NCBI GenBank assembly: GCA_976551045.1
Contig: CDPCPM010000022.1
Coordinates: 6,572,001-6,636,000 of the forward strand
Reading direction: 5' to 3'
From: Glaucostegus cemiculus
Lineage: Eukaryota
Length of the DNA: 64,000 nucleotides
This document shows, piece by piece, positions 444 through 57,232 of this stretch. Position 1 is the stretch's first letter. The number at the start of each line of letters is the position of its first letter. A program made the translations under genes and the position numbers. Below the pieces are notes generated by a model. That model saw nothing but the letters and a program-made list of their open reading frames with translations, did not search any database and was not told where the DNA came from.

Positions 444-3441
444 AAATCCTAGAAAATGGTTCACCCAACAGCCTACTTAATCCAGAGTAGATCGCATGAG
501 CAATAATTTCTGGTTGAAATCAAATCCATGGTAAAACAGAACCAAGTTCTTCTGTGCACTATTTTCATTGGAATGCCCAATATTTTTTCTGGCATCAAGT
601 GCATATTTAGTGATGATGCTTTTCAGGCAATGCCAATTTTTGTCTTATGGGGGAAAACTCAAGATCAAAGATGCAACCTTCAACTCTCATGGAATGTGCG
701 CTCAATAAAACCAAGAGCATTTTGTTCTTCTTTGTTGCTTTTCTCATTATTTAATGGGACACTGCTGATATTGCTAGATGAGGCACAACATTGTCTGATG
801 AAATGCCAGTGCACACCAGTGTAACTCATCTCTATGCAGTAAAAGATGAGATTTGTCCTGAACAAGGATACATTTGAATGAATGTTAGCAGGTTCAGAAT
901 TAAATGATGATTAAGTGGTCTCCACAACTTCGGTTGGTCAGGATTGTATGCATTGTCTGAGTACTTAAGAGAAAATTAGAAAAGGGCACAGGGTCAGAGC
1001 TGACGCAGAGAAAATCAGGGGCAGCTTGCCTTGGGAGTGAAGACGTTGAAGGAAAGCATTATAAGTTGCAGAATGAGCAATCCCAAGACTGCTTCTCTAG
1101 AGCCCAAGAACAACCCTTGGATCCCTTCTGCTGCAAACTCCTGAGCCAGCAGCCCCACAAATCCTGTACCCACCACAAATGAAAGATGGTAATTAAAGCT
1201 CATCCTACCAATTTCCCAGAGTTAGTTGGAGGCCTTGAAGCTGTATAGTTTCCTGCTGCCTCCCACTAATTTCCTGACCAGAGCACCCATCAGGATTTAA
1301 ATGACTCCAGCTTCTGAAATCAGCTATATCACATTTTGCTACTGACCAGTGGAGATTAGGTCATGATAAGTGTTCTGCCAAAAATACACTGACAATAAAA
1401 TTCAGGCAAAGGATTCTGAAAGAGAGGTAAGAGGGAAGAACAAACTAAGGTGCTCAAGGGAGAAGAAGATAACTGAGGGGAAAAGTTCAGTTATGAGTTA
1501 ATGATGGGGTCAGCTTTGGTACCACAATAGCTTGAGTGTCTGAACATGTGTATACTCCAGCAAGAGACTTCAGTGAAGAAAAAGATGACACCATCCAAAC
1601 TCCAAGTTACTATCACAATTTGTTTAGATAATCATCTACAATAATATTATGGATAGCAAGGGACCTTGCTCAGAAGTCAATGGACAGTATCTCATGAAAC
1701 ATGGAGAAGGCATAGATCAAGGACAATACATTTTAGGTGAGATTGGATCAGAAAAGTTGATTAGACAAATAGTGCTCATTGATTTGATAAAGGAGCTGGA
1801 GCAGTTATGATTAATATTCATGAAGAGCAACAGGATCTCTGGAAAATGTTATGTCAATGGAGTCACAAGGATAGATGTAGATTTATCCACGATGTATTCA
1901 AGCCTTAGAGTAGGAATGCAGAGAATGGCAATGGGTTAGAGTAGAGTAGAGGGAGACAGTATACCATAAGGTAAAAATTAAAGGTAGAAAGAGAAGCTGA
2001 TGGAAACATGAGCAGTAAAGCAAAATTCTTTGTAGAGAATCTGAATCATCAGTCAAAATTAGTATGTAAATAAACACAAAGGGAATTAAGGCTACACAGG
2101 CATTTCCAAGAGCAGGGGAGATAAATTCTGTCCATAAACAAAAGTTTGGAAGAGTGTGTAAAAATTCAAGTCAAAGGTCCAACTATAGGATGAAATTCAT
2201 GCAGGCAGATGGAATTTGCTTGAAGCATAGATGGAAAAATGTCCAGGTTCAAAGATAATTGCAGAGATAGGTGAAACAAGGAGTTGGGAAATTTGCAGAG
2301 AATCACTGGGTTCACTATTGGAGATTGTCCAGCGAAAAGCAGAGGAATTGAAGTTTCACAATGAGCCAGTGGAAGTTGATCTGGAGACCCAGTGGAGGGC
2401 ATTATTCCTCACTATAAACTTCGTTATGTTCTAATGTTTCTGCAACAGTGGCAGCAAACTGCCAAAAGGACTGAAATGACATTTCTTTTCCAGTACTTCC
2501 CCAGCACCAACACAAATATTCACCCTTTTTAAGCTTTAAAGTGCAGATAATTTGTGTGTTCCCAACATCAGTATTTTTGGGCATTTTGCAGATGAAGCTC
2601 TACATCTATTCCTTTTGTCATAGATTGCAACAAGCAATGATCAGAGCTGGGCTTTAACGGTACTGCACAAATTCTACTAAGTGTTCCTATGTGAATAACA
2701 AGTACAAAGTAAATCTTCCAGTTTTGAACATGGTACTGTTTTTTTCCATTTAGGGACGTTATTCACCTTTTGTTTTCAGTTACAGACACCATTCCTGTCT
2801 GCCTTCCTGTGTAGACTGCTTATTCTGATCCGCTCATGCATTGAAACTCACTAAGTCATTTGATCATGGCAAGTACATTATTTACTCTGTATAAAAGATG
2901 TTTGGGATAAATTACATTTTCCTATTCCCCACTGTGTCCATTTATAGCTGCAAAAGTAGCCAGGGAAAAGTGAAGGTAGCTTCTATACTCCAGTGGTAAT
3001 ACATTTGACAGGTTTTAAGAAATAAAAGCTAAAATGCTCTTTTGCAACCCTTAATGCACATGTGTCCACTACAGAAAACTGCTGTAAAATGCATGTTCTT
3101 CTTCTTAGGCAGTTAAATTACTTGCTTCCACTCCTGTTCTGAGCTGGCTGAATGTGGGACCTCCTTTCTCAATCTCTGCTCCCAATGAACTGACTGGAGA
3201 TTCTCAGTGACTTCCTGAATGCGCCTTCCCTACATTGATCAGTCACGGGTCAGTGAGGAAGCTACATTTTCTCAAGAAGACTTTGAGAACATCCATGAAT
3301 TGTTTTTTTTTTACCTCCTTGTAGTCTCTTGCTGCACCAAAACTCCAGCAAGCTACCTGCTTTGGGAGTCTGGAGTCTGGCATGTGAATAATGTGGCAGG
3401 TCAATCAGCTGACTGTGACTGGAGCCTCAGTGTCAGAGACA

Positions 3442-3560
3442 GAAACAGAAAACACTGGAAAAATTCACCAGGTCAGGTTGTATCTGTGGAGAGAGAAACA
3501 GTGTTAATGTAGGTTAATGATCTCTCAAAAGATTTGAAAAAGTTAGTAATCAAAGATATC
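3442..3560 (-). mobile_element. Degraded Penelope-type pseudo-LTR fragment
   Basis: acagaaaacactggaaaaattcaccaggtcaggttgtatctgtggagagagaaacagtgttaatg matches the arm sequence seen at 42440 and 50255 and, inverted, at 54530-54660. Confidence 0.55.
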
Positions 3561-3699
3561 TGGGCAGAAAAGAAGAGAAAACAAAAGAGATGGCCAAATT
3601 CAGGCAACACTGAACCGCTAGCTGAGGTTTCAACTGCCATCAGGCAGCATTGAGTGGGCATTTAATGTCTCCTAAGGCTTTTCTCAGCTCTGAAGAGCT

Positions 3700-4095
3700 A
3701 TGGGGAAGGGGGGAGGTGGGGTGTGGCTGAGGCAGGAGAGAAGAAAATCAAAGGGAAAGAGAGAAGAGAAAAACTGGACAGAAGAGTTGAGCCTGAAGAA
3801 AGGAAGAGGGAAAAAGAGAAAGAGCTGAGTGAAAGGGGTGAGACAGAAAATGAAAAAGGCATTGAGAGAAGGAGGGACTGATTTGAGGTGGGGGAGGCAG
3901 AGGTATGTGAGTCTGTATGTCTGTCTATCTCTGTTCATGTCTATATCTATGTGCCTGTGTGCATTAATTTACATGTGTGAACATGTGTTTGTACATGCAT
4001 ATGTGGTTGAGTATGTGTGTTTGTGTGCCTGTGTGCAGGGACAGGTATTTATTTGTGCTTGTTGATTGGCAGACAGATGTAGGTATGTGTGTTTA
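3700..4095. repeat. Low-complexity GA-rich tract followed by a degenerate (TG)n tract
   Basis: Purine run at 3700-3900, then TG/TGTA-rich sequence to ~4095. Confidence 0.8.
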
Positions 4096-4284
4096 CAGCC
4101 ACCTGTGCTTAGTATTCATACAACAGAGCCTGTTCTCCAATTTTCTTGAACTCCTTTGTTAGTTAAGTGAAGTTGCCATGCCAAAACCACACAGTGTGCA
4201 ACAAGCTTGTCAAGTAATAAGAAATCATTTCATTCACGGCATCTTCCACTCCTCCATATAAATGCACTGACTGACTGAGGCATT

Positions 4285-4574
4285 TAAGATATCTTTATTA
4301 GTCACATGTACATCGAAACACACAGTGAAATGCATCTTTTGCATAAAGCGTTCTGGGGGCAGCCAGCAAGTGTTGCCACACTTCCAGCACCAACATAGCA
4401 TGCCCACAACTTCCTAACCTATACGTCTTTGGAATGTGGGAGGAGACCGGAGCACCCAGAGGAAACCCACACAGTCATGGAGGGAACGTACAAACTCCTT
4501 ACAGACAGTGGCCAGAATTGAACCCAGATCGCTGGCACTGTAATAGCATTACACTAATCGCTACACCACCATGC
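4285..4574 (-). mobile_element. tRNA-derived V-SINE (HE1-like head/body) with Rex1-type tail, full length
   Basis: The minus strand shows A-box-like tggtgtagcgattag, B-box gggttcaattc, V-domain tgggtttcctctgggtgctccggtctcctcccaca and tail catttcactgtgtgtttcgatgtacatgtgactaataaag. Five further near-identical copies occur in the window. Confidence 0.93.
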
Positions 4575-6494
4575 ATGTACTATGCCACTACACAGCTGTA
4601 GTGACTCCTTGCAAAAAAACAAAGAGAAGGTGGGTGGGTGGGGGTGCATGCATTGTTAGCTTGTACTACATTACAGGTGCATATGTGTTCTTTGCTATTT
4701 TTATTGTAAAGGAATCTCTCTGGAGTGGGGGTGACCAATTTCAATAGTGGGATACCAATGATGTGGGTGGGATGTGATTTCTTCTGCAGAAGTTTGGAAA
4801 CTGCTGTGCCATCAAAAATCTGGTGGGACATAGCAGAGGAGCCAGCTTTCCATGTGGATTACTTGTAGGCTGGGAGGACCAGAACTGCTCCTTTGGATCC
4901 ACCAAATAATCTTTCATCATCTCCAGCCCCAGGAATTTCCTCTTCAGCTCTTCAGAAACTCTGTCCCACCATTGATCCCGTGCAGGAATCCTTTTCCTGT
5001 GATACTGACCTCTTTCCCAACTTTCTATTCCAACTTTCTATTCCTGTTCACCTGCTCTTTCTTCATTCCTGCTCAAAAACAAATGTAAATAAAGCCCTTG
5101 GGTCAGAAGGGTTTGGGTCAAATACCAAGGGCTCCTCAAGGGATCTCCACCTGCTCACAACTCCGCCATTTCCAAAATTCTCCAGGATATTGCTTTCCGA
5201 TTTGGATGTTTGAGAGACCTAGGACTAAATCTGAGGAAAATAACAATTTCTTCTGAGAGCAGCTTTGGGAACTAGACTCTCAACATTTCCACAACAACCT
5301 AGGTGGGCAGGGGCAGCAAATTACACAATACTGTCTCCAGCACTGTATCCTTCAAATGCAAAACAAAAATATTTCTATTCATTGGCAATGCAATATTCAA
5401 TTGCTAATTTTAAGTTGTTCAGTGATGTATATACAATGGGCTGATAAAGGTTTAAATAAAGCCTGGGAAATGATTATTTTGTTTTCACAGTCAATTATTT
5501 CAATAATTAAATGAAGTTCTAAGCAGCTCCAGCCAGCAGAACGTGTTGAACTGGATGTACTACCTTTGTTAAGAATTCTGATCAGTACTGCCTTCAGCTC
5601 CTTGGAATGTGAAAAATGGTGACTCATTCAGTATTTAAAAGCAACTGCATTAGAAGGTCTCTCGGGCAGTAGGAACAGTCTGGGATCTTAAAACAATATT
5701 ATGGTCTATGAAAAGATGAGAGCAAAATCTGAGAAGACTCTTGAGGATTCCAAGTCACAAGTGTTGACAGAGCAGTCAATCTATGCTGTTTTATGAATTT
5801 AAGTACAGTAGTGTAACCCCTAACCCTTTCACTTATGCAACGATCATCATTCTCAGTTTTATTGTTTCTTTGACACACATGCACTGTTTATTTGACTTGC
5901 TAGGTTGATGGAAAATATCTCTGTGCAACACTATGTATGCTATGGAACCATACTTCAAATTTGTCAATCATCAGCTTAAGGTTGGTAGCTGCAGCAAAAA
6001 ATTCAGCTGGAATATTTGTGATCATGTCGATTGAGTCTTGCTTCAAACTCATCAATAATAAGCCCTGTATATATGTAATGAGGTTCCCTTTCCAAGCACC
6101 CACTGTTTTAATATTAGAGCAGCAAGGGTGGGAATATCCAATTTCTCTTAACATTAAAGACATTGGAAAGTAATTCCAAGTCTATGACTATCATCCAGGA
6201 ACATTTGAAGCCTGACTTTGCACTGATCTCAGTTTATAATACACATAAGGTAAACCTAAAAAAAAATTCCTAGCTTGAGATCAATGCAGAACATGCTACT
6301 TAGGCAAATCCTAGGGGTCCCAAAGAAGTGGTGACAGCTCTCCCTAAACCACTGCAACAGGAGGTGCACAGTGGGAAGTAGTGAAAAAGGACAATCAGCA
6401 CAGAGCTCACACCAACATCACCATTCACATCCTGCAATAATTGTCCAAACAATACTATGTAACATGAAATGATGAACATTTCAAAATAATTAAA

Positions 6495-9480: not shown

Positions 9481-11454
9481 TGATGTTGATACAACTTTTG
9501 AATGGAGTTTTTTAATAAGTCTACAGAGATGGCTTTTACAAAGAACTAATTAAAATAAAAACAAATCTCTAAAATTACCCAAAAGTGCAGAAAACAAGAT
9601 GAAAATTATAAATGTTATTTATTTCTCATAAGTATTTATCATTTTGCCATCACATTCCTCTCTATGTTTTGTGCATTTTTGGATTCTAATTGTTTTGTAC
9701 ATTTTTCCAATTTTGTGCTCTTTATTGTTCTATTTTCTTAACTTTACCCATTATTGTTTATGCCTTTTCTCTCTTTTTGTATGTTTTTCTTCTTGGTTTT
9801 CATTCCTTATTTCTAAATGATCAGCCTATCTGGAACAGGATTTCCCCTTATTTTCCCATGGCAAAATAACCCTTGGTAGGAATTTGATATGTTCCGATAT
9901 GTTCTCATTATTCCCACATAGAAACTTACTTGTGGATTTAATAAAAACTCAGATTGCTTAAGTTCTACACATATGAAAAATATAGATGATGTAAATAAAA
10001 TTATGGAGAAAATGCTTTGGATAAAAAGAAAAACAATTTAATAAATGAAACCAGTTTTAAAGTTAATACTTGGTCTTACGATTTAGTAACATAATTCTGA
10101 AATGAAAAACTATAAATTGAACAAGAATCAGACAGAACCAAAGTTCTTTTAGAGATTTAGGCTCGGAAACCACACCATGAGATATATTTCATTGATTGAT
10201 ATGTATTCAATGCACTTACAACTGTGATAGCATTGCGTTTGAATAATTACCATCTGTTACAAGGTTTAATGTATCAATTCCCAATCTGCATTGTCCAAAT
10301 TTCATTGGGAAAGAGAGCAGTTGTTTTATTGTGGTTCACCATGGAAAACAATCCTTACTGCTGGATATTGCATTGACCTAGAATTTTGAATTGGAGGATT
10401 TTTATGGCTTGACATAAAACTGAAGATATCTCCCAAGTAACAGCAAGTAATGGCAGCTTGTTGAAGGGCTGTAAGTGTGAGGAATCTTCTGGTGCATTAA
10501 GTAAGCTCGCTTCACTAGTGAGGTATTCTCTTCACTTCACAGGTACAAGGTATGCAATGGAATTTTAGTGCTAATTTCTGGTTCTGTACGTGCAAGATAC
10601 CAAGAGAAGCATTTCAAATATTGTGTAATCCAGATAACACATGGAGAATAAAAGCAGCTGTAGCCCTGTGTAGCAGGACTCATGAGATGATTAAATTTGA
10701 CATGATCTACACACCATGACCCAATACACAATTTTACATCCTTAAATGATATGCTATTGAGAATTCAGTGTAAGTGCTCACAAAGACAGAGACCAAACAA
10801 ATGTGGCCCCACTGAACTGTTAAATAAGAGTTAGTAAAAAAGAGAGTTAAATTTCATGCAACCTGAGGGAAAGGGACCAATGAAACATTGGAAGGAAAGA
10901 GGACTCTTGGAAAAAAATAAAAGAAAGGCCATTGGAGATGCAAAAAATGAAGTGAGAATGAGTAAATCTGTAGATTTTAAAGGCAGCAACAAATCATTTG
11001 TTGAACATCAGGTGTTTCATACTGAGGACAGCAAATGTATTTCAGACTGCTTTTTGTGCCCATCTGTGTATGATTTCACCCCAATATTTTTAAAGTTGAT
11101 GTTTCACAAATGTACTAAGTCATGCACTGTTCCTGTCTGGCCAGTTGAGTCTTACCAAAATTTTCTGTTTTTATTTCCTGCAGATATTCAGCAGAGACAA
11201 ATGTCTCTCATTATGGGAGATTATAAACATTCTTTTGCTCATGTGGTGAATAAACACCAAAGGGTATCAGTTGGAGTGAGTAATCACTTTCTCCACTATA
11301 ATTTTGATGTAATTAATCCTTTTTGTGTACCTTTATGAAACAAGAGAGGCTGTGAAGTGATAGTGGAAAAATGAAATGGCAGAAAATGCAGAGTGCAACA
11401 TTAATTTGTGTACAGTTGGTGGTGTAGACTAGTGCTTGGGCTACAGAATGTTCA

Positions 11455-12554: not shown

Positions 12555-12852
12555 TAAAATAAAATAAGCTATCTTGATTAGTAACATGTATATCAAAACA
12601 CACAGTGAAATACATCTTTTGCGTAGAGTGTTCTGGGGGCAGCCCACAGGTGTCGCCACACTTCCAGCACCAACATAGCTTGCCCAAAACTTCCTAATCC
12701 ATATGTCTTTGGAATGTGGGACCAAACCAGAGCACCCGGAGGAAACCCATTCAGACTCAGGGAGAACATACAACTCCTTACAGACAGTGGCTGGAATTGA
12801 ACCCGGGTTGCTGGCGCTGTAAAGTGCTACGCTAACCGCTGCACTACCGTGC
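12555..12852 (-). mobile_element. V-SINE with Rex1-type tail, full length
   Basis: Near-identical to 4285-4574. Confidence 0.93.
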
Positions 12853-13189
12853 TTTCTCTTTGCTCCATGCAAACCCAATGCAAACCCCTCTCCTTTTGTT
12901 CTGCTGAAATCTTCCACTCCATTGATACATAAATATTTCCTTCTAATTATACTAAATCCTGAGTATAACACAACCTAAGGAAGTAAGGAACTTTTTCAGG
13001 AACTACTCCATCTGTTCTCTTCCTGCCGCCAGCAATTCTTGCATATTGTGCAGTAATTGCTTTTGGGCAGATAATACATCTGCCCAAATATAAATGGATG
13101 TTATGAATTAGGTATAAACAGCAATGCTTTGTTTCTGGATTTCATATTATCTTTCCAGGGAGAAGCTATAATATTTAAAGAATAAGGGC

Positions 13190-13400
13190 AAAAACTGTTG
13201 GAAGCTACTCTCTAGATCAGCAACATCTATGGTGGGAGAAATAATTAATATTTCAGGAAGATGTTAGATGTGAACAAGGAAGGGATGGTTTGGATAGGTG
13301 CCAGGATATAGAGAAAGCACTATAGGAAAGGGTCTGTGATAAGAAGGAGGCAGGAGTTCTTAAATGACAAAGGGAATAACAGATGATGGATATATCTCAG
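13190..13400 (-). mobile_element. Old Penelope-like terminal fragment
   Basis: aaaactgttggaagctactc...cagcaacatctatggtgggagaaataattaatatttcagg resembles the pseudo-LTR arm and is followed by a purine-rich segment. Confidence 0.4.
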
Positions 13401-16734: not shown

Positions 16735-17795
16735 TTCAAGACTCCAGGACCTGGGAGTCAACACCTCCCTTTGCAGCTGAATCCTTAATTTCCTGATCAA
16801 CAGACCACAATCAGTAAGGATAGGCAGCAACACCTCCACCAAGATTATTCTCAATACTGTGTCCCACAAGGCTGTGTCATGAGTCCTCTACTCCTTATAC
16901 ACTTATGACTGTGCGGCCAGATTCTGATCTAACTCCATCTACAAGTTTACAAATGATACCACTGTAGTCGGCCGTATCTCAAATAACAAAGAGCCAGAGT
17001 ACAGGAAGGAGATAGAGAACCAAGTGGCATGGTGTCATGATAACAATCTTTCCCTCAATATCAGCAAAACAAAACAGCTGGTCATTCAGAAAAGGGTGTG
17101 GTGTATATGCTCTAGTCTACATCAAGAGTGCTGAGGTCAAGAGGGTTGAGAGCTTTAAGTTCCGAGGAGTGAACATCACCAATAGCCTGTCCTGGTCCAA
17201 CCACATGGCTGCCATTGCCAAGAGAGCTCACTAGAAAGCCTACTTCCTTAGGAGACTAAAGAAATTTGGCATATTCCTGTTGACCCTCACCAATTTTTTT
17301 GATGCACCATAGAAAGCATCCTATCCAGATGCATCACAGCTTGGTATGGCAACTACTCTGCCCGTGATCACAAGAAACTGCAGAGAGTTGTGGACACAGC
17401 TCAGCACATCATGGAAACCAGCCTCCCCTCCATGGACTCTGTCTACACTTCTAGGTGCCTCAGTAAAGCAACCAGTATAATAAAAGACCCCACCCATCAC
17501 AGACATTCTTTCTTCTCCTCTCAAGCAGAAGGTACAAAATCCTGAAAGCATGTACCACTGGGCTCAAGGACAGCTTCTATCCCACTGTTCTAAGAATATT
17601 GAATGGTCCCCTAGTACGATAAGATGGACTCTTCACCTCACAATCTACCTCATTATGATCCTGCATCTTATTGTCGACTTGCACTACACTTTCTCTGTAG
17701 CTGTGACACTTTATTCTGCATTCTGTTATTGTTTTACCTTGCACTACCTCAATGCACTATGTAATGAATTGATCTGTATGAATGGTATGCAAATC
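16735..17795 (+). mobile_element. Rex1/Babar LINE, 5'-truncated, inserted in a CR1
   Basis: Colinear with 15020-16096: PQGCV, YTYDC, KFTNDTTVVG, VESFKFRGVNITNSLSWSNH. Confidence 0.93.
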
Positions 17796-17796
17796 A

Positions 17797-17932
17797 GGTT
17801 AGAAAGTTGTGGGCATGCTATGTTGGTGCTGGAAGCGTGGCAGCACGTGTGGGTTGCTGCCAGAACATTCTACATGAAAGATATATTTCACTGTGTGTTT
17901 CAATGTACATGTGACGAATAAAGATATTTTAT
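17797..17932 (+). mobile_element. 3' half of Rex1-tailed V-SINE fused to the Rex1 3' UTR
   Basis: ggttagaaagttgtgggcatgctatgttggtgctggaagcgtggc...catgtgacgaataaagata matches the reverse complement of 4285-4420. Confidence 0.88.
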
Positions 17933-17934
17933 AA

Positions 17935-22320: not shown

Positions 22321-22605
22321 TGGCACAACAATAGACAAAGCAATAATGGAACAGTGTCAGAAAGCCCATTGCAGTTGATTTTAAAGGAGATAAAAAGTAA
22401 ACTGCAGTGTAACTTTTGCAATGTGTGAAACCCAAGCAGATGTAAACTTCCTGAGGTCATCACTGTTGAATATAATTTGCAAAAGAGCAGAGGCACAATC
22501 AAGCTTTGGGGTAACAACTTTTGTGGATAAAGGATAGATAATTTCTTCAACTGAGCCCCTCCTACAAGTAATAGGTTACCAGAGTGTAGCTCTGCAAAAT
22601 CACCA

Positions 22606-23603
22606 GAGGTAGTGCATTTTGTGGGAATCTTGAAAAGAATAAGACATATACCATGCAATGAATAATCTGTTGGAGGAACTCAGTGAGTTGAGCAGCATCA
22701 GTGGGAAGAAAGGAATTGTGGACATGTCCTGACGCAGGGTTTTGACCCAACATGTCGATGATTCTTTTCCTCCCACAGATGCTGCTGAGCCCACTCTTCC
22801 TCCAGCAGATTGTTAGTTGTTCCAAATTCAAGCATCTGCAGTCTCTTGTGTCTCCAAAACATATACCATGAATGGTTGGGCCCTAGGAAGTGTTAAAGGA
22901 CAAAGGGACCTTGGTGTACAAGTCCGAAGGTCCCTGAAGGTGGAGCACAGGTGGGTAAAGTGGTGAAGAAATCATATAGGATACTTATCCTCATTAGCCA
23001 GGACATAGAATATAAGGGATGGTGGTCTTCATACAATTTGGTAAAACATTGGTCAGGCCACAGCTGGAGCACTGTGTGCAGTTCTGGTCACCACATTATA
23101 GAAAGGTCATGATCACACTGGAGAGGGTGCAGAGGAGATTCACTCGGATGCTGCCTGGGTTGGAATGTTTCAGTTATGAGGAGAGACTGGATAGACTGAG
23201 ATTACTTTCCTTGCAGAAGAGGCTGAGAAGAGACCTGCTTGAGTGATATAACATTATAAGGGAAGAAATTGGGTAGACAATAAGAAATCTTTCCTTGTGG
23301 TAAAGTTGTCAAAGACCAGAGGGTTTATGGTGAGGAGTATGTTGTTTAGTGGAGATATGAGGAAGAATCTTTTCACCCAGGTGGTGGCTGAAGAAGGAAT
23401 GCACTGCCTGAGAAAGTTGTGGAGGCAGGTACCCTCTCAACATTGAAGAAGAATCTGGATGAGAACTTGAACCACCAAGGCATAGAAGGCTATAGAACAA
23501 TTGAGTAAATGGGATTGGAACAAATAAGTACTTGACATTTAGTATAGAAATGAGGAAAAAAAGGCTTTGTTTCTGTGTTGTGTCGCTCTCTGATTCTATG
23601 ACT
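22606..23603 (+). mobile_element. 5'-truncated CR1 LINE flanked by a 22-bp direct repeat
   Basis: ORF 23019-23246 reads KTLVRPQLEHCVQFWSPHYRK...LERVQRRFTRMLPGL. The tail is ctctctgattctatgact. gtgtag(c/a)tctgcaaaatcacca occurs at 22584-22605 and 23604-23625. Confidence 0.92.
22656..22858. mobile_element. Palindromic Penelope-derived mini-element with hammerhead-like core, inserted in CR1
   Basis: Inverted arms aataatctgttggaggaa (22661-22678) / ttcctccagcagattgtt (22797-22814). TSD acatataccatg at 22644-22655 and 22859-22870. Core ctgacgca-gggt-tttg-accc-aaca-tgtc. Confidence 0.85.
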
Positions 23604-23634
23604 GTGTAGATCTGCAAAATCACCACAGATCTAT

Positions 23635-23822
23635 GGAGACAGGTGAGACTGCAGATGCTGGAATCTGGAGCAACAAACAATCTGTCGGAGGAACTCAGTG
23701 GGTTGAGTTCAATTGTCAATATTTCAGGTCCTGATGCAGGGTTTTGACCTGAAATGTCGAGAATTCCTTTCCTCCCACAGATGCCACTCGACCCACAGAG
23801 TTCCTCCAGCAGTTTGTTTGTG
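23635..23822. mobile_element. Palindromic Penelope-derived mini-element with hammerhead-like core
   Basis: Arms caaacaatctgtcggaggaactc / gagttcctccagcagtttgtttg. TSD caccacagatctat at 23621-23634 and 23823-23836. Core ctgatgca-gggt-tttg-acct-gaaa-tgtc at 23731-23758. Confidence 0.87.
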
Positions 23823-24154
23823 CACCACAGATCTATCATATCTTTTGGTCTCTCTGCATTGATTGCTGTAAACCTTGAAATTAACAATGATCTTACTGAC
23901 TTGAATAGATTGGACAACTTGTCCTTTTCAAGGGATTTCTCTTGAAGTTGCTTTGATATGCATCCTTCAAGAAATTGGGCTTCAGTTCTCACACAAGAGC
24001 AGAAAACTCTCAGTTTGCAGCGAGTTTTCTCAGATGCATGTAATATTGATCAATTGTACCTTTTGCTTCTTTCCTTGTGTAACAGAACAGGTGTTTCATG
24101 TATCAGAATCCACTGTGGCGTAAAAGATGCAGCCAAAATTTTAATTTCTAAGTT

Positions 24155-24445
24155 AAGAAAAGATAAGATATTTATTTATTAGTAACATGTACACCGAAAC
24201 ACACAGCAAAATGCATCTTTTTGCCTTACTTAGAATGTGCTGCGGCACCCACAAGTGTCGCCACTCTTCCGGCACTGACATAGCATGTCCACAACTCCTA
24301 ACCTGTACACCTTTGGTATGTGGGAGGAAACTGGACCACCCGGAGAAAACCCACGCATACACACAAACTCTTTACAGACAGCAGTGGGAATTGAACCTGG
24401 TCGCTGGCGCTGTAATAACACTATGCTAACAGCTACACTACTGTG
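24155..24445 (-). mobile_element. V-SINE with Rex1-type tail, full length
   Basis: Near-identical to 4285-4574. Confidence 0.92.
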
Positions 24446-27400: not shown

Positions 27401-27682
27401 CAGGGTTGATTTATCTTGGAGCAGGTTGCACGAACTATCATTTCCAGGTAAAATCACACCAGTCACAAAATCAGAAAGGCACTGCTGTCTACTAGTGTGC
27501 CGGAACTTTTCCAGCCGTCAGGAGCTTACCTAAAGCTACCATTATTTGCCACTTTCCATTCTTGCCAACATAAATTTCAGCTCAAGGCTCCAGGTTCCAA
27601 ACATCATGAAACAGTCTCACTCAAAAGTTTCCTTCTTCCTTTGTCATATAAGGGAACACCTGGCTGACATTGGAAGACCTTA

Positions 27683-27977
27683 TAAGAGATCTTTATTAGT
27701 CACATGTACATTGAAACACACAGTGAAATGCATCTTTTGCATAGAATGTTCTGGGGGTAGCCCACAAGTGTCACCACGCTTCCGGCACCAACATAGCATG
27801 CCCACAACCTCCTAACCCGTACGTCTTTGGAATGTGGAAGGAAACTGGGGCAACTGGAGGAAACCCACGTAGATACAGGGAGAATGTACAAAATCCTACA
27901 GACAGCAGCCGGAATTGAACCCAGATCGCTGGCGCTGTAATAGTATTAAACTAACCACTACACTACTATGCCTGCCC
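27683..27977 (-). mobile_element. V-SINE with Rex1-type tail, full length
   Basis: Near-identical to 4285-4574. Confidence 0.93.
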
Positions 27978-34227: not shown

Positions 34228-34487
34228 GGGCAGCACGATAGCATAGCAGTTAGCACGACACTGTTACAGCGCCAGCGATCGGGGTTCGATTCCGGCCGCT
34301 GACTGTAAGGAGTTTGTATGTTCTCCCGTGTCTGCGTGGGTTTCCTCCGGGTGCTTCGGTTTCCTCCCACATTCTAAAAAGACATACGGGTAGGTGAATT
34401 TGGGGGTTTAAAATGGGCGGCGCGGACTCGTTGGGCTGAAAGGGCCTGTTACCACACTGTAAATAAAATTTAAACAATTTTAAAAAA
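34228..34487 (+). mobile_element. V-SINE with CR1-type tail, full length
   Basis: Head ggcagcacgatagcatagcagttag, B-box gggttcgattcc and V-domain tgggtttcctccgggtgcttcggtttcctcccaca. The tail gactcgttgggctgaaagggcctgttaccacactgt is followed by an A/T-rich end. Confidence 0.93.
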
Positions 34488-34902
34488 GAAATGGAACTAA
34501 AGAAGCGCCATCTTCTTTAGTGGGAAGTTGTGGAAGGTGGTGATGCTGGAAGTAAGGTGTTAGTTTGACACTTCAAATAACAGGACAGAGTGTTAGTCTC
34601 AGCTTCATGTTCTTTCTCAAAGTATTGCAATCCATTCATGTTGAGCAAACATTGCTGCAAATTAAATGTTCTTCTGTGTTTCATATAAGCTTCTTTCCTG
34701 AAAGAGCACCAGTCTCTTGAGAAGATCTACCCGGTGAGTTTCAAGGTCTGCCACATGGTAAAGCAATAGGCAATGGTGAGAATAAAGTTCTGGATCGGCT
34801 GAAAGAAAGTGTGCTTCTTGGCAACCTATGTCTTGAAAACAAGAAAGCTTCTTTGGGGAGCCTGTGCTGCTGACATGGGGCAAGAAGTATCTGAGTTTTG
34901 CA

Positions 34903-35055
34903 TCAATCTGCTGGAGGAACTCTGGGTCAAACGACAACTATGAGGGGAAAGGAATTGTCAATGTTTTGGGTCGAAATCCTGTCCTGATGCAAGGTTTCCC
35001 CCTTCAGCAGATTGTCTGTTGCTCCAGATTCCAGCATCTGCAGTCTCTTGTGTCT
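34903..35055. mobile_element. Palindromic Penelope-derived mini-element (internally deleted)
   Basis: Arms caatctgctggagg / ccttcagcagattg. TSD (t)ctgagttttgca at 34890-34902 and 35055-35067. ctgatgca lies at 34984. Confidence 0.83.
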
Positions 35056-38000
35056 CTGAGTTTTGCAAGCCACCTATTTCACTGGAGAAGGAATTTGGTT
35101 AGCTATAAAACAGCAAGCAGCACTTAAATAGAAACTTTCAAGAAAAAGGCATAGTTATCATTTTCATTTAAAAAAATAGACAAATGGATAGTGATCCAAA
35201 AAGGACGTCTTAGGATGAATAACTAAAACCTTGTACCTTGGGCTGTAATTTGGTGGAGAGATGAAGAGACAAAGGATTTCAACAAGTGGAAGACCTGCCA
35301 GTAGCAGGGACCATGAAGGCGATGCATAGATGCAGGGTGGAGATAAGGGTAACAAAAATGAAACAGCTTCACACGTGTTACAGCAAATGGAGCTCCAGCA
35401 TCCAGCCAGATTGCAACAAGGAACGTGATACAATCTGATACCTTGAAGGAGTATCACTTGACTGCTGCTTGACTGCTTTGTCAAGGAATACCCATTTATT
35501 TCCCTGTTATTCACTTGGATGTTGTTTTCTTCATATGACAACAGATGTATATTAAGTTTGTTAAGCCATTTCTGACACTAGAATGAGATTTTAGGGGTTA
35601 CATCAGTCCCACACACAATTGTGGTCCCCTTCTTCAACAGTGACTGCTTTGCACGATATTCCTGCCACAATAACAGCCCATATCTGGCTTGGACCTACAG
35701 CACTGCTGTCTCCAGCTAAAGGCTCATCAGTTCCTTGCTTTCATTACAGCCATTTATTTCCATCTGCTAAGTTCCTGCTCAGTATTTTCACTGTATACTT
35801 TTTATCAAATGATGATAATATCACATCCTTGCTTCAAACATATTTAACATTTCAGTCCTATTGGTATAACTGCTGGTGAGATTTACCCCCTTTTTCCATG
35901 AATGTTGCGGAAGTTATTTGATGCTTAGATTCCTGAAGGAGTCTGCCATCTTGGATTTAGCAGACACACCTTCCACTTCACCCCCATCAAGCAATCAGGA
36001 ATTTTGGGGTTCCAAGTCTTTGATGGGTTAGTTTGTAAAATGCAAGAATTTGAAGCATCATCCTTTATTTATTTGCTTATTTATTTGAGGGAACATTAAA
36101 TACAATTCTTCAAAGAAGCACAGCGTAGTTTCTCAATAGGAAATGTGATTTAAACCAGTGGTTACAAGAAAGCCCCACAGATATAGAGCCCAACAAGCTA
36201 TGCTTCAACAGTACATCATAATTAAATTCTAAAAAAATGTCAGTCAGCACTGGAGGCAAAAATAAGATTTGGACTTCTCTGCATGCACACAAAGCAGTTA
36301 CAAAGCATTTGTACTAGAGGCTGTTCTAATGTTAATTAGAGAAGGAAATGTAAGTAGAATCTGATTGTATCAACCAAAAAGACATCTGTTTTACTTAGAA
36401 CGCAAATGCCAAAGATCAATAAATAACTGACTGCAGCATGTGGTTACAGACACCACTTCCAGACAGCGAATAAAACAAACTGATTTTTACAGAAAATGAC
36501 TACATATGGAGGCATTGTCATTCGCCATCAGTATCACCGTGTATCGCGAGTGATTTTAATTAAATGCATACTGTTTTGACAATAATTCACCATGGATTCT
36601 GTGTATATTTTTCCAGCTACAAGAATCCTAACGCATCATTTGTGAATAGTAGGATTTATATTGAGGGATGATGGTAGCTCTGTCTCCACTTTTTGAAAAT
36701 AGAAATGAATATTACAGACAGCACATTTTACCTTGTTTCCCATATTGTGAAGTAATGTTACATGATTGTCTTGTATTTTACTACTCAACTGTGACTTAAC
36801 ATCTTACTTTAATGATAAAGCTCTAACCCCAATCTCTTGGTATGAAACCTGCAGCTAAATGCAGTCAAAACAAAAACAGAACTAATATTTACAATATTGT
36901 GGCAGCTGTTTGTTCAGCTGCAATGCATATAGAAAATGAGTGGGCCAGCAGTGTTTTCTTTCATAAGAGCTTCCAAAATAACAATGCATGATCACACTCT
37001 GTAAACCAGGAATGAAGTTTACCTGCCAGATTGTAATTGTGCTGCAAAAAAAATGCATAGTTCATTCTCCATTACAGAAATTTATTTCTTAAGAAATGGC
37101 CAGTTATCTTCAGAAGTGCCCATAGCACACATTTCAGAAACTTGAATTACCTTCATGTTCTGTGGAAATAAGATTGAATGAATGGCTGTTTAAAATCTGG
37201 GTTAGACAAACCTTCAAAAATTTGTTTGTCAAAGTAAATAATTAGATGCATTGCATCTGGTGCTTGGTCTGACATCCTTTAGGCAAATGAAAATGTTCAC
37301 TCCATTCAAGGATTACCAGGAATAATGATTGGTTGCTTCTTCAGTGACTGAAATCTCAGCCAATCAAAAGTACAAAAATGCTCACACATAATATTTGTAA
37401 GCTGAGGAAATCAAACTGGTTAGCACCCATTTTCATGTGCAAATTACACAAAATTCAAGTTACCTTGTGCTAGCAAACATTTCCTGGTGAAATCGCACCC
37501 ATCACAAGATTGGACAAGACACTTCCACACATAATCCTTGTCGTGTGCCTTTTCTCTGACATCAGAAGTACACCTAATGATAATGCTCTTTGTGCAACTC
37601 CCATTTCTGTCCTTACTGACACAAATTGGAGCTCAAAAAGGTGTGACCTACAGCTATTGTGGACAGTCTCCATACAAATGTGAGCTCATCGTTCTACTTT
37701 GTTGATTTTATCATTGTTTAAAGGCACACTCTGTTGACATCGGTCAACTGAACAGCTTCACAACTCAATAACCTTCCAAATAGTCACAGAGTATACTTAA
37801 ATTAACAAGGAGTGCTTTCTACAGTACTTAACTACTAAGATACAGATTCCAGGAATACCTTGATCGTGATGTCTCTTGCAGCCCTCAAAACATTTCTTGT
37901 TGAGGGTCCCTCAGGTTGCCAGCAGCTGACATATCAATTTTGCTTATCTCAGCACAAAATAAGATAAGATTACCCTAAATGAGGATGGATTTGAATAGTA

Positions 38001-41110: not shown

Positions 41111-41431
41111 CTCATTGATTGCTGTTCATCCATATTGATTTCCTGTAATTCATGAGGAAGGACACTCAAATTCCTCTAAATTAAGTGCAATCTCCTCATA
41201 CATTTATTAGTCACATAAATGGGATTGTCCAGAAAACCTAGGTGCTGAGAGTTCTCTTCAGTCCCTGTTCCTCTTCTGCAGCAGCTCGTACTACACTGCA
41301 CGGCCTCAAGTCTTCCTTCCATCTGTCCTGCAGAGCATGGGTCAGCCCTAGCAAGGTAGCAGTGACTAAGTACTCCATTTTTCCAGATGACTCCTGTAAA
41401 GTATTCAGCACAATACAACAACAGAGCATCC

Positions 41432-42109
41432 AATCATGTTTGTGAACTCAGAGAGTAATATCTCCTCCTCGCTGACAGTCAACACAGGCGAACCTCAAGG
41501 ATGTGTGCTTAGCCTACTGTTCTACTCCCTCTACACTCATGACTGTGTGGCTAAACACAGCTCAAACGCTATCTTTAAATTCGCAGATGACATCACTATT
41601 ACTGATAAAATCTCAAATGGCGACGAGGAGGCGTACAGGAGTGAGATAGATCATCTGGCTGAGTGGTATTGCAACAACAACCTCACACAATGTCAGCAAG
41701 ACCAAAGAATTGATTGTGGACTTCAGGAAGCAGAGGTCAGGTGACTACACGCCAGTCCTCATTGAGGGGGTCAGCGGTGGAAAGGGTGAGCAGCTTCAAG
41801 TTCCTGGCGTCAACATCTCAGAGGATCTATCCTGGGCCCAACACATTGATGCAATCGTGAAGAAGGCAAGCTAGTGGCTCTATTTCTGAAAGGTGTATGG
41901 GTAGGATAATTTGGGGGTTAAAAATGGGCGGCGTGGACTCGGAGGGCCGAAAGGGCCTGTTACCACGCTGTAAATAAAATTTTTAAAAATTTTAAATTTT
42001 AAATTTTAAAAAAATTTAAAATTCATTAGGAGTTTGAGGAGATTTGGTATGTAACCAAATTTCACATCATACTGTATGTCAGTGATAATAAACCTGATTC
42101 TGATTCTGA
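41432..42109 (+). mobile_element. Rex1/Babar LINE fragment with internal deletion and SINE insertion
   Basis: ORF 41436-41744 reads [40 protein letters not shown]. The 3' end is gtgataataaacctgattctgattctga. Confidence 0.92.
41893..42022 (+). mobile_element. 3' part of CR1-tailed V-SINE with expanded (aaaattttt)n tail
   Basis: gggtaggataatttgggggttaaaaatgggcggcgtggactc...gggccgaaagggcctgttaccacgctgtaaataaaattt matches 34388-34470. Confidence 0.88.
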
Positions 42110-42439
42110 ATTTCCTAGAAAGATTTTTGGAGTATTGAAGTGTTCTCTCAACGTGTCTCAAAGTTCCTCTTCAAACACCAGGTGGTCGATCATCTCCACT
42201 GTCATTTGAAAAACAAAACTAAGGCAACACTCAAAATCTTCTGGGGCATGTTCACTTTACTCTGCCCCAGAGTTAGTGCTACCGACCAAATGATGTGCAA
42301 ACATCAGCAGTTAACTTGATTATCAGGGAAGTCCTTAATGATGCTCCAGTTGATCATTACTAATGTGAAGTTTGAGTCCTTCGCTGAGAAATTGTTGAGC
42401 ACTAAACATGGACTGAACTGATATTGCAGGTGAAGATAG

Positions 42440-42648
42440 AAACAGGGAATGCTGGAAATACTCAGCAGGTCAGTTAGCAAGAAAGGAACAGAGGCAATGT
42501 TTCAGGTCAATAAGCTTTCATCAGAACTAGTTCGCTTGAGAAACTTTAACTCTGTGTCTTGCTCTGGAGAAATTGTCTGGTCTGCTGAATGTTTGTAGCA
42601 TTTTCCGTTTATCTTTCAGATTTTCGGCATCTACAGCCTTTTATTTGT
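42440..42648. mobile_element. Older palindromic Penelope-type pseudo-LTR pair
   Basis: Arms aatgctggaaatactcagcaggtcag / ctggtctgctgaatgtttgtagcatt. The minus strand carries ctgatgaa-agcttattgacct-gaaa-catt at ~42496-42525. Confidence 0.75.
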
Positions 42649-44786: not shown

Positions 44787-44787
44787 T

Positions 44788-45080
44788 TAAGATAAGATTA
44801 AGATATCTTTATTAGTCACATGTACATCAAAACACACAGTGAGCTGCATCTTTTGCATGGTGTTCTAGGGGCAGCCCACAAGTGTCGCCATGCTTCCTGT
44901 GCCAATGTAGCATGCCCACAACTTCCTAACCCATACGTCCTTTGAAGGAAACCAGAGCGCCCGGAGGAAACCCATGCAGACACGGGGAGAATGTACAAAC
45001 TCCTTACAGACAGTGGCCGGAATTGAACTGGGGTCACTGGCGCTGTAAAGCATTACATTACCCGCTACACAACCGTGCCT
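44788..45080 (-). mobile_element. V-SINE with Rex1-type tail, tail-to-tail with the Rex1 copy
   Basis: Near-identical to 4285-4574, with a small deletion in the V-domain. Confidence 0.93.
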
Positions 45081-45087
45081 GCATTTG

Positions 45088-50045: not shown

Positions 50046-50254
50046 CAAGCTGAGACAAATCATCTAGAGTGGCACTTCTGGTTGAACATGATTGTGAACT
50101 CCTCAATCTTGTCTTCAACACTCAGGTGTTGGGCCCCAGTATCATTGAGGATGTAAATGGTTTTTGGAGTCTGCTCCTCCATTTGCTGTTTACCTGTCCA
50201 CCATTATTTATGACTAGACATAGTAGGATTTCAGAACTCCAATCTGATATGATC

Positions 50255-50379
50255 AGGTGGATCTGTGGAAGGAGAACAGAATTAACATTTCAGGTCCAAG
50301 ATCCTTCATTCCTGCTGAATGTTTCCAGCACTTTCTGTTTTATTTCAATTTCCAGAATATATAGTTATTTTGATTTCCA
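50255..50379. mobile_element. Deleted Penelope-type palindromic fragment with 8-bp TSD
   Basis: atctgtggaaggagaacagaattaacatttcaggtc...ctgctgaatgtttccagcactttctgttttatttca. atatgatc occurs at 50247-50254 and 50380-50387. Confidence 0.65.
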
Positions 50380-51387: not shown

Positions 51388-51672
51388 ATAAGATATCTTT
51401 ATTAGTCAAATGTACATCAAAACACACAGTGAAATGCATCTTTTGCATAGAGTGTTCTGGGGGCAGCCCACAAGTCTTGCCACGTTTCTGGTGCCAACAT
51501 AGCATGCCCACAACTTCCTAACCCGTACCTCTTTAGAATGTGGGAGGAAAACCGGAGCACCTAGAGGAAACCCACGTCGACACAGGGAAAACGTACAAAC
51601 TCCTTACAGACAGCAGCGAGCATTGAACCCGGGTTTCTGGTGCTGTAATAGCGTTACACTAACTGCTACACT
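51388..51672 (-). mobile_element. V-SINE with Rex1-type tail, inserted in the LINE 5' region
   Basis: Near-identical to 4285-4574. Confidence 0.93.
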
Positions 51673-54364: not shown

Positions 54365-54660
54365 AGGTCCTGAAGAAGGGTCTTGACCCAAAACGTTGAC
54401 TGCCTGCTTTTCTCTACAGATGCTGCCTGGCCTGCTGAGTTCTTCCAGCGTCATCAGTGTTTTTCATCTAGGTTCCAGCACCTGCAGTCATTTGTTTCCC
54501 TGGGGTCGTGATCAGATAACCATCTCTTTGACAAAGAGTTTTGACCTGAAACATTGACTTTGTTTCTCGTCCCACAGATGCAGCATGACCAGCTGAGTGG
54601 TTCCAGCATTTTCTATTTTTAATTCAGGTTCCAGCATCTGAAGTTTTCTTTTGATTTTCA
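54365..54660 (+). mobile_element. Two tandem Penelope-type pseudo-LTR units
   Basis: Unit 1 (54365-54500) and unit 2 (54528-54660) share gacc.(g/a)aaac.ttgact...acagatgc...gctgagt...tccagc...tccagca.ctg.agt. A poly-C run at 54346-54361 precedes them. Confidence 0.8.
54367..54400 (+). ncRNA. Minimal type I hammerhead ribozyme motif (one core mismatch)
   Basis: Stem I gtc(54367-69)/gac(54398-400), core CTGAAGA(A), stem II gggt-cttg-accc, AAAA in place of GAAA (CpG decay), palindromic stem III acgt and predicted GUU cleavage site. Confidence 0.65.
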
Positions 54661-57054
54661 GCGACCACTGCGGTCAGGGAACAGATCACTTCTGGAATGA
54701 AGGCCACTTTTCTCTGCCTGGGTCAATGACTGGATCTAGCACATCTGCTCCACAGTACTCCTGACTCAACTGAAAGTCAAATCTGTCAATCTAGCTGAAT
54801 CCAATTGAATCATCAGAATCAATCATGATGATTAAGTTGTCCTAGTGTGGAAGGAAATCTGGACTTCTGATTTTCCATCAGAAACTCCATCCTATACACT
54901 GATGTATGCAACATGCCGCTGTTGACAGCAGAGCTTCCTTTTCAAGACCATCTAATCATCTGGTTTTTAAAACCCTGTCACGTGGCCTCCCAGTTGTTGC
55001 TACATTTTCTCCTTTTTATTACTCCCTGCAACTTTTGAATGTTGTGAGCTTTAACTTTAACTTTTTACTTTAATGCTTGAGAAAAAGAATTAATCCTGCA
55101 CCTTCATCTTTATCATTTGATGTTGTGGCATCAGCTGTAAGGACTGGCAAAGGATATACTATATGAAACAGATGAGTGGAACAATCTTCTGGAAACAATC
55201 GCCTGCAAGAGGTCACCAAGCAATTTTGCTAAAACAGTTCAGAAATATCCTCAGCAGAGAAAATACATCTAGCATTCCCCGCTACAGCATAATGCCATTG
55301 AGATGGAAATGATGCCCCTAAACAATAGGTAATAGATTTTTCACTTTGGGGAGTTAGTACTTCTTGTAACTTTTTTCATTCTGATTTCCTTTCATGAAAT
55401 TCACAAGAGCTCATGTACTTCTTCAATTCATTTTATCAAAAATGTTCTGCAAGAAAAGAAAACCCTATTTCAAATATTGTTTTTGTTGATGTAAGAACAT
55501 GTTAAACATAATACCTTAACAGTTCAGATCTCCAAATAGAGATTAAATGAGTTCACAAACTAATCAAATAAAAGTAGTTAATTTGATATAAAAATGTAAC
55601 ACCTTCCAGCATGTACATTTTTTTCCAACCAGATGCCTCCCAAAAGCATTATTAACAGATTCTAGAATCTCCTCACACTCTGTTAAATATTAGTTATGGT
55701 ATTGTTGGACCTTTAAAAAATTCACAGGTCTAGAAATTCATTGGCACTCTGACCATTTTACAAGTATAAAACAGGTGTGTTTGTCTCTAATTCAGCTCCC
55801 ACCTACTGCTCATTGGTAATAACCAAACCAGATCCTGCAACCAGCCTCACTGGGCATGCATAGTAACCACTGCTCCAGTACTGCACCCTCTCCAGTCCAC
55901 AAATCTAACACCAGCAAACACATGCATAAATACACCCAATTCACACATGGTCCAGTGTCTGGTCCCCAATCTCCTCAGCTTGTAATCTTTCTTTAAACAT
56001 TTGTCCTGTAAGATAACACACTAAATTTAATACTGCAGAAAAATTCTGTAATCTTTCAATATGGTCCTCTCTTCTGTGTTCATACATAATTGTGAGCATG
56101 CATATTATTCAAACTAAGTCAGATGAATTAACTCCTGGATAATATCTCTTCGACTTCAAGGAGCAGCTGGGAAATGTAATGTTCAAACTTAAAAAGGGGA
56201 ACTCTTCCAGGGCCCAATAGCCTGCCTCGTCTGTTGCTAACACATTTTTGGGCAAAGTTCTGAGCTGACCTCTGGTCTACAATCAGTAGTGGGAATGCCT
56301 TGGTTCCCTACCCTGTGGAAGAAAGGGAAATATCCTGCTTCTCTTCACCATCCAGTGAACCCAGCTCTTTGCATTTCATTTGGCTGCTCTGTGAAACTCC
56401 ACAGACACAGTCTCCAAGCCTCAAAGTGCCCAAAGCTCAGCCCACAGGCATGTGTAGCATCAGAGTTCCGACAATCTGGCCTTCCTCACCCAGTTACTCT
56501 GTTCCACTTTTGCTGATAACACTTACTGGCTGTCATGTTAAAATGAATTATCTTAAAATCAGGAACATTGCAGGTAAGCACCATTACTGACCTCCACCTG
56601 TCTCTCAGGCAGTGCTCCCATTGATGAAGTGCTGCACCAGCAATGAGTTGCTGATTGATTACCCCTTGAATTTAGTCATGGCCTAAACAAAACAGTAGCA
56701 CAGCTGTTTGTTTATCACAGCCAGTAGCCTTTGCCTCTGGGAATAGAGTCAGAAACAAAAAAAAAGTGTGGAAAAGTCCCCATGCTGCCAAAGGTGCTGG
56801 TGGCAAGGCCCACTTATTAATATGACACTGCCATTCAGGGCTGTCTACAACCTTCAATGGCAGTACTCTGATGAATGGCACTTTAATATGACACTAAAAA
56901 TCCATAATTCAAGTGGGAAGAGTTCAGCCACAGAGCTAGTCCAATTGGTTTCAGATTTGATACAATATGTGCTAGAGAATGGATTAACAACAGCAGCGAA
57001 GTGCTGGATTTTTGTGGAGAACTTTGCAGCAAAACTTTTTATTTGTGAAATAAG

Positions 57055-57232
57055 ATCACAAAATTCTGGAAACGCTAAGGTCAGGCAGCAACTGTGTTTT
57101 CAGATGTTGGAATTTCATCAGAACAGACCTAAAACACGTGTAAATTCTCTTTTTCAATGGTTGGTGCTAAATAACTGAAGCATTTTCGGCTTTTATTTCA
57201 GATTTCCAGCATCCACTTTTATTTTGCATTCT
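57055..57232. mobile_element. Highly decayed palindromic Penelope-type fragment
   Basis: acaaaattctggaaacgct..ggtcaggcagca...tttcatcagaac...gcattttcggcttttatttcagatttccagcatc, as at 42440-42648. Confidence 0.55.

Follow-up and report, generated by a model that had tools for sequence, protein, structure and literature searches.

Three hairpin-type insertions in Glaucostegus cemiculus are best explained as head-to-head pseudo-LTR copies of a Penelope-like element

In the 64,000-nucleotide stretch of Glaucostegus cemiculus DNA analysed here (the window; about 40% GC, non-coding and rich in LINE fragments), three insertions of 150–200 bp, E1 (22656–22855), E2 (23635–23822) and E3 (34903–35054), form one subfamily of hairpin-type elements, raising the question of whether they constitute a mobile RNA family in their own right or the remains of a known kind of retroelement. 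A sequence-only reading had taken them for a dedicated, non-autonomous, retrozyme-like fold-back family mobilised by a Penelope-like element (PLE). Our analysis indicates that E1–E3 are independent head-to-head insertions of PLE pseudo-LTRs (pLTRs), a reading to which we assign a probability of about 0.8. Under this best explanation, the three elements are now inactive, each truncated to two pLTRs, and were made by an endonuclease-bearing PLE of cartilaginous fish. The PLE link is well supported, and a retrozyme-like fold-back family is not supported. A head-to-head pLTR pair with a tail and a target-site duplication (TSD) is already described for ordinary PLE insertions and does not represent a novel type of mobile RNA.

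Only E1–E3 reached E values below 1e-20 when the window was first searched with a profile. The flanking direct repeats are exact and 12, 14 and 13 bp long for E1, E2 and E3, respectively, much as the sequence-only reading had described, and random boundary pairs gave a direct repeat of at least 12 bp in 2 of 3,000 trials. The duplications are long and variable in length, as had been claimed, but their individual lengths needed revision: for E1, 15 bp with one mismatch is a better reading than 12 bp, whereupon E1 and E2 terminate on the identical base, and that of E3 is 11–13 bp because of microhomology at the element ends. TSD length is thus variable among the three elements (15 bp with one mismatch, 14 bp and 11–13 bp). 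The host of E1 is a 5'-truncated LINE fragment, which we take to be of the CR1 type. When E1 and one TSD copy are excised, the site aligns unbroken to the CR1 copy at about 49240–49440, confirming that E1 landed inside a CR1. The CR1 fragment has its own TSD of 22 bp with one mismatch (22584–22605 and 23604–23625), the right copy of which is overlapped by the TSD of E2 by 5 nt; with E1 lying within the CR1 fragment, the three insertions are therefore clustered at a single original site (22584–23625). As a TSD-clock control, convincing TSDs were sought around six SINE copies and four other CR1 copies, and none was found. The SINE-like repeat of about 290 nt, presumably an elasmobranch SINE, is present in 7–8 copies (4284–4577, 12555–12852, 17795–17934, 24153–24445, 27682–27975, 34232–34406, 44787–45081 and 51385–51672), mostly 72–86% identical and without clear TSDs.

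Table 1. Insertions E1–E3, their host site and related pLTR loci in the window (starts are given in the pLTR numbering defined in the text)
Feature	Position	Strand	Description
CR1-type LINE fragment (our label), host of E1	22606..23603	+	5'-truncated; own flanking TSD
E1 left TSD	22641..22655	+	15 bp, 1 mismatch; exact 12-bp core 22644–22655
E1 short (tail-less) arm	22656..22725	-	starts +27
E1 tail-bearing arm	22726..22855	+	starts +1
E1 minimal hammerhead remnant	22726..22759	+	16/19; C at position 9; G12 and A14 lost
E1 unpaired tail	22820..22855	+	36 nt
E1 right TSD	22856..22870	+	15 bp, 1 mismatch vs left copy
E2 left TSD	23621..23634	+	14 bp, exact
E2 tail-bearing arm	23635..23730	-	starts +19; internal deletion of 18 nt; tail about 23635–23671
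E2 short arm	23728..23822	+	starts +1; 3-nt overlap with other arm (microhomology)
E2 minimal hammerhead	23728..23761	+	best preserved of the three; 17/19; 0.2 per shuffled window; C at position 9
E2 right TSD	23823..23836	+	14 bp, exact
E3 left TSD	34890..34902	+	11–13 bp
E3 short arm	34903..34981	-	starts +10; only 3' half of hammerhead
E3 tail-bearing arm	34981..35054	+	starts +1; deletion of about 55 nt removes GAAA and cleavage site
E3 right TSD	35055..35067	+	11–13 bp
Head-to-head pair, other subfamily	42432..42640		10-bp palindrome at junction (42524–42533); no TSD found
Related head-to-head pair	50255..50366		most of centre deleted
Solo pLTR, other subfamily	54367..54500	+	canonical A9; best minimal-hammerhead match in window; preceded by pyrimidine run ending in AG
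Older related head-to-head pair	57046..57213		short arm starts +1, tail arm about +19

Once co-oriented, all six arms of E1–E3 are the same sequence of about 130 nt, and each element consists of two such pLTR arms joined 5' to 5' with their 3' ends outward. The arms were numbered from +1, the first base of hammerhead stem I, with the predicted cut after +31. One arm per element overhangs by 36, 37 or 39 nt (the tail), while the other arm stops short by that length, so the arms are not terminal inverted repeats. At the central joint the arms overlap by 0–3 nt, and the junctions differ in all three elements, with the second arm starting at +27 in E1, +19 in E2 and +10 in E3. The +1 start belongs to the tail arm in E1 and E3 and to the short arm in E2, and E2, judged by its tail, is oriented opposite to E1 and E3. 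The short arms of E1 and E2 have pLTR end points that agree to within 1 nt. A MITE or fold-back DNA transposon would likewise be short, non-coding, TSD-flanked and built of inverted arms; the 36–39 nt overhang in place of a terminal inverted repeat, the TSD length varying from 11 to 15 bp, the variable centre, the solo arms present in the window and the PLE-type ribozyme motif argue so strongly against it that we can virtually discount such an origin. The earlier preference for retrotransposition over cut-and-paste movement is upheld by the long, variable TSDs and the lack of terminal inverted repeats.

The inverted arms had been credited with the ability to form long hairpins. E1 folds well beyond its shuffled counterparts (z −9.2 and −6.8), as does E2 (z −6.0 and −5.0), but E3 folds no better than shuffles (z −1.4 and −1.3) because its tail arm lacks about 55 nt. 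In the full hairpin, 6 (E1) or 7 (E2) of the 8 positions from GAAA to the cleavage site are paired to the antisense arm. The probability of stem I is near zero even when the antisense arm is left out, so silencing of the ribozyme by the hairpin cannot be deduced from folding alone. Rfam searches of the whole window and two sub-regions gave only weak, sub-threshold miRNA-hairpin matches. Weak miRNA-hairpin matches only were also obtained for an 83-bp imperfect palindrome at 51992–52074 (39-nt arms, 85% complementary), which is unrelated to the pLTR.

A hammerhead descriptor of 19 features, built from the minimal-hammerhead consensus given in PMC4209133 and scored on both strands, returned eight matches of at least 16/19 in the window, four of them pLTR arms, including the top two. 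The best match is the relative at 54370, with 18/19 and 0.03 expected per shuffled window, followed by E2 (Table 1). A score of 16/19, found for E1 and at 42524, is background on its own, since 4.2 such matches are expected by chance. The hammerhead motif previously quoted for all three elements is complete only in E2, one of the three: E1 has AACA in place of the required GAAA, and in E3 the motif is split, with the 5' half alone on one strand and the 3' half alone on the other. An intact core (CUGANGA, GAAA, UH) is present in none of the six E arms; the E2 core misses only A9, plus one broken stem I pair, and the E1 core is without A9, G12 and A14. The Rfam hammerhead models gave no match to the whole window or to two sub-regions. 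Covariation in stems I and II, the absence of which the earlier reading had named as counting against it, was not found: in a low-power comparison of nine decayed arms, both partners had changed in a single pair, whereas shuffling gave a mean of 2.2 such pairs. The damage to the hammerhead is mostly due to CpG decay. Across 11.1 and G12, the CG has become TG in five arms and CA in three, the stem III palindrome reads CG, TG, CA or TA (CG or its deamination product) in 9 of 9 arms, and A15.1–U16.1 is kept in all nine. The state of the stem III palindrome suggests that the ancestor had GAAA followed by a self-complementary ACGU, which would permit the dimer pairing of minimal PLE hammerheads and matches the model in PMC4209133. 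Taken together, the descriptor scores of 18/19 and 17/19, the one-ended tail and the head-to-head shape bear out the proposed origin from PLE pLTRs with a minimal type I hammerhead.

The four E arms that include position 9 of the core all have C there. By contrast, the relatives at 54370 and 42524 have A, as do 44 of the 44 rows compared of the published alignment (PMC4209133), the compared part of which contains no chondrichthyan row. A search with a pLTR-peptide query lacking the hammerhead core and derived mostly from the E arms yielded 15 matches, comprising one named skate model and 14 short unnamed ORFs. Six of these 14 ORFs reach the core, and all six peptides translate as C9 would. Its occurrence in the E arms and in these six ORFs makes C9 look like a subfamily-fixed trait rather than the result of decay. 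A literature search for an 'A9C' hammerhead found no relevant report.

Since each of the six E arms begins before the predicted cleavage site, none derives from cleaved RNA. According to PMC7229834 and bioRxiv 10.64898/2026.07.22.740005, retrozymes consist of tandem units, arranged head to tail, that carry two or more hammerheads on the same strand; they are related to pLTRs and have been reported in the sole chondrichthyan sampled. That relationship, together with a type I hammerhead-like motif, a non-coding length of 150–200 nt and long TSDs, would suit an animal non-LTR retrozyme spreading via self-cleaved circular RNA. The tandem finder, however, detected no head-to-tail same-strand units at the E sites, the two ribozymes of a pair occupy opposite strands, the motif belongs to the minimal PLE type and not to the canonical type with loop 1–loop 2 contacts, and the GAAA-to-cleavage-site stretch is paired in the hairpin. 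All 6 arms also extend upstream of the cut. We consider a retrozyme very improbable, and this part of the sequence-only reading is not supported.

A profile of all arms (nhmmer) revealed seven further loci of related subfamilies, three head-to-head pairs and four solo arms, bringing the pLTR-derived loci to ten in 64 kb, or about one per 6–7 kb. The weakest accepted arm had E 0.005; one match near 11150 (E 0.001) and all matches with E above 0.4 were excluded, and the best match in the reversed-sequence control had E 1.4. One arm starts at stem I in five of the six head-to-head pairs, and the centre of the sixth is deleted. No TSDs were found at the related loci, except for a weak 8–11 bp candidate at 50238–50386. 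A head-to-tail arrangement is seen at 54367–54655, where about 160 nt separate two pLTRs that share 66% identity and come from different subfamilies. No other same-strand pair in the window could form a ribozyme dimer in cis, and the first of these two pLTRs carries the best-preserved hammerhead. On the minus strand at 3428–3900, a solo arm and the roughly 350 nt of pyrimidine-rich sequence before it are possibly a longer 3' fragment of the parent element; a motif scan recognised no coding remnant there. A further decayed solo arm lies at 13185–13257 (minus strand, E 5e-7). A possible exon following a pyrimidine tract was noted at 11180–11270, next to a weak pLTR-profile match (11125–11181), and no homolog of this candidate exon was found, nor did it reveal the host gene. 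An exact 20-mer scan of prokaryotic genomes gave two bacterial matches without extension (about 1.1 expected by chance), and blastn against plasmids and phages gave no match.

No PLE reverse transcriptase (RT) or GIY-YIG domain was found in the window by Pfam analysis of 67 of the 77 ORFs of at least 90 aa, which returned three RVT_1 matches, all in LINE fragments, and one weak unrelated match. The RVT_1 matches fall in broken reverse-transcriptase fragments (41400–41741, 48326–48922 and 49111–49440) that we take, from their motifs, to be LINE-type and not Penelope. A motif scan of the window for PLE protein gave nothing convincing. The 15 matches to the pLTR-encoded peptide include neither a long RT protein nor a long protein starting inside the pLTR frame, and a protein search with one of the unnamed ORFs, P0003, returned only P0003 itself. 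Judged from translations only, P0003 and P0010 read through head-to-head copies with other junctions, P0003 apparently retaining almost the full palindrome, and P0005 and P0007 enter the pLTR from upstream sequence that is not inverted. At 54420–54500, an open frame of about 30 codons extends from an ATG to the tail end, and pieces of this frame are seen in the E arms. In two arms (22762–22780 and 23764–23782), a pyrimidine tract is followed by CAG and ATG, resembling a splice acceptor. The only named relative found is a gene model of the little skate (Leucoraja erinacea) containing the same pLTR peptide; in this model, PCGF5-B isoform X1 (P0001 residues 159–183), an in-frame insert starts exactly at the CAG/ATG site and runs to the tail, a predicted exonisation of the pLTR. 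CR1-like and Penelope-like elements have been reported as expanded in whale shark introns (bioRxiv 10.1101/443036).

A palindromic pLTR–pLTR master, transcribed as a hairpin and retrotransposed whole by a PLE with its centre deleted later in each copy, would explain why none of the three E copies contains more than head-to-head pLTRs and why their outer ends are near-identical. Deletions do hit palindrome centres, E2 and E3 carry further internal deletions, P0003 seems to preserve nearly the whole palindrome, and non-autonomous PLE derivatives exist, MRC1 being the example in PMC8557442. Against this, the side keeping the ribozyme start flips between E1/E3 and E2, the junctions differ, and one arm always stops exactly at stem I, which is unexpected from random centre deletions. 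The same pLTR is also found without inversion (P0005 and P0007, from their translations). A master with diverged arms further predicts that tail–tail and short–short similarity exceeds tail–short similarity. Comparison of non-CpG mismatches between elements revealed no such signal (tail–tail 22/99, short–short 29/168, unlike arms 50/269; within elements 25/121): like arms of different elements are no closer than unlike arms, and arm-specific diagnostic bases were not seen in the three copies. The differing junctions, the side flip of E2 and the lack of arm-class similarity thus point to independent events rather than copies of one fold-back master, which we regard as quite improbable, and the dedicated family proposed earlier is not supported.

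The arms differ from the majority sequence by about 7.6% at non-CpG sites (33/437). RNA editing was rejected as a source of this divergence, as A>G accounts for 1 of the 33 changes. In E1 and E2, arm-to-arm non-CpG mismatches amount to 16/97, compared with 1/40 in the TSD pairs (Fisher p=0.023, a small post hoc comparison); the p value is 0.01 with the TSD of the older CR1 added and 0.11 with the tails used instead. E3 was left out owing to poor alignment near its deletion. The higher divergence of the arms hints that two different RNAs served as their templates; alternatively, imperfect palindromes may have survived preferentially, or the discrepancy may be due to chance. It bears on a sub-mechanism of PLE origin, the snap-back, in which the first cDNA or an antisense template folds at short microhomology and is copied back: arms identical at insertion should diverge no more than the TSDs, contrary to what was observed. 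The 3-nt self-complementary overlap at the E2 junction, the 10-bp junction palindrome of the pair at 42432–42640 and a few CpG changes common to both arms of one element are what a snap-back would leave, and self-priming is the proposal made for palindromic PLE junctions in PMC3846280. Snap-back alone does not account for a short arm that terminates close to a constant position, at a distance of one tail-length from the end, and we hold it to be possible though doubtful.

Inversion by two-ended priming, an analogy with the anole PLE Poseidon (PAc, Anolis carolinensis), has in our estimate roughly even odds. The purified Poseidon protein, a predicted dimer, cuts the two target strands and extends each of them; it initiates reverse transcription at two sites bracketing the tail and uses uncleaved RNA, ribozyme cleavage being dispensable (PMC11167929). 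By this model, a PLE RT/GIY-YIG protein acting in trans would have cut both target strands, and the staggered double cut, read from the sequence, would have given the 11–15 bp TSD. Both free 3' ends may then have primed cDNA with uncleaved pLTR RNA as template, one at the tail end, the other farther in by the length of the tail, so that the two RT start sites would define the tail. The cDNAs would have run toward a template boundary at stem I, which is the +1 boundary visible in the arms, and would have been joined head to head with 9–26 nt lost from one arm. The hairpin would be a by-product rather than a functional RNA, burying GAAA and the cleavage site, and would since have decayed by CpG loss and deletion. 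At 54367, the pyrimidine run and AG directly before stem I would suit a 3' splice site at the +1 boundary and recall the D. virilis intron ending at helix I (PMC4209133); a transcription start is equally possible. The start at stem I in five of six pairs and the shared short-arm end of E1 and E2 could instead reflect a short dedicated template.

Weighing against the PLE reading are the lack of a PLE protein, of an Rfam hammerhead match and of covariation in our searches, C9 in place of A9, and a sample of three copies only. A more elaborate account, which we consider unlikely, is that of an abundant ORF-less elasmobranch PLE subfamily with a fixed C9 core, each insertion of which arises from two different pLTR RNAs, paired via the hammerhead palindrome or a dimeric PLE protein, primed from both target ends at two tail-defining RT start sites, on templates that begin sharply at stem I. 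If so, the motif would be kept as a dimerisation or template-boundary signal and not as a catalyst, and the copies would be a genomic record settling the origin of PLE inversions and tails, still called undefined in PMC8557442. Whatever the mechanism, this is an elasmobranch PLE pLTR subfamily that annotation pipelines could mislabel as a MITE or pre-miRNA. The insertions are minimal, have clean TSDs and are dense in the window, so the genome would give many junctions to separate two-ended priming from snap-back, and such junctions could test whether cleavage by the ribozyme is required for a PLE to spread. The two leads for a genome-wide look are the C9 core and the discrepancy between arms and TSDs. 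No earlier description of this shark/ray subfamily, or of ORF-less head-to-head pairs as a family, was found in the literature; the search covered papers, and Repbase or Dfam may well have it catalogued.

Comparison with known systems places E1–E3 among PLE insertions. Inverted 5'-truncated copies and a tail of 30–40 bp on one end only are listed as standard PLE features in PMC8557442. In A. vaga, as described in PMC3846280, the inverted 5' pLTR of Pen2a overlaps the direct one and is accompanied by a 31-bp tail and a 9-bp TSD, TSDs there are 8–10 bp, and head-to-head is the commonest arrangement. Like these endonuclease-bearing Pen2/Pen2a elements, E1–E3 have head-to-head pLTRs, a short overlap or palindrome at the junction, a one-ended tail of 30–40 nt and a variable TSD; unlike them, they have no ORF between or behind the pLTRs, the whole insertion being 150–200 bp, and their TSDs are 11–15 rather than 8–10 bp. 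The minimal PLE hammerhead consensus (Cervera and de la Pena 2014, PMC4209133) has one additional base between positions 9 and 10.1, and its 15.2–16.2 is palindromic. The E motif shares with the hammerheads in that source the 3-bp stem I, this additional base, the G10.1–C11.1 pair and the loopless, palindromic stem III of the GAAA-CGUC type. It differs in having C9, or alternatively an additional base inserted between G8 and A9, and in a short stem II of 4 bp. Pairs of minimal hammerheads on opposite strands, 100–700 bp apart, were already noted there in Schistosoma, and scattered single motifs were read as probably truncated PLEs. The in vitro behaviour of Poseidon predicts the anatomy of E1–E3; the likeness is one of behaviour, and the family may belong to Poseidon, Neptune or another clade. 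With animal non-LTR retrozymes, as characterised in the sources above, the elements share a short, non-coding, pLTR-related structure, a type I hammerhead and long TSDs; retrozymes are same-strand tandems with canonical ribozymes and circular RNA, whereas E1–E3 are inverted pairs with minimal, decayed ribozymes. In L1 twin priming, a 5' inversion with a TSD results from priming at both target ends, and the inverted and direct parts do not overlap. In E1–E3, by contrast, both arms cover the same sequence, so two templates or two passes are needed.
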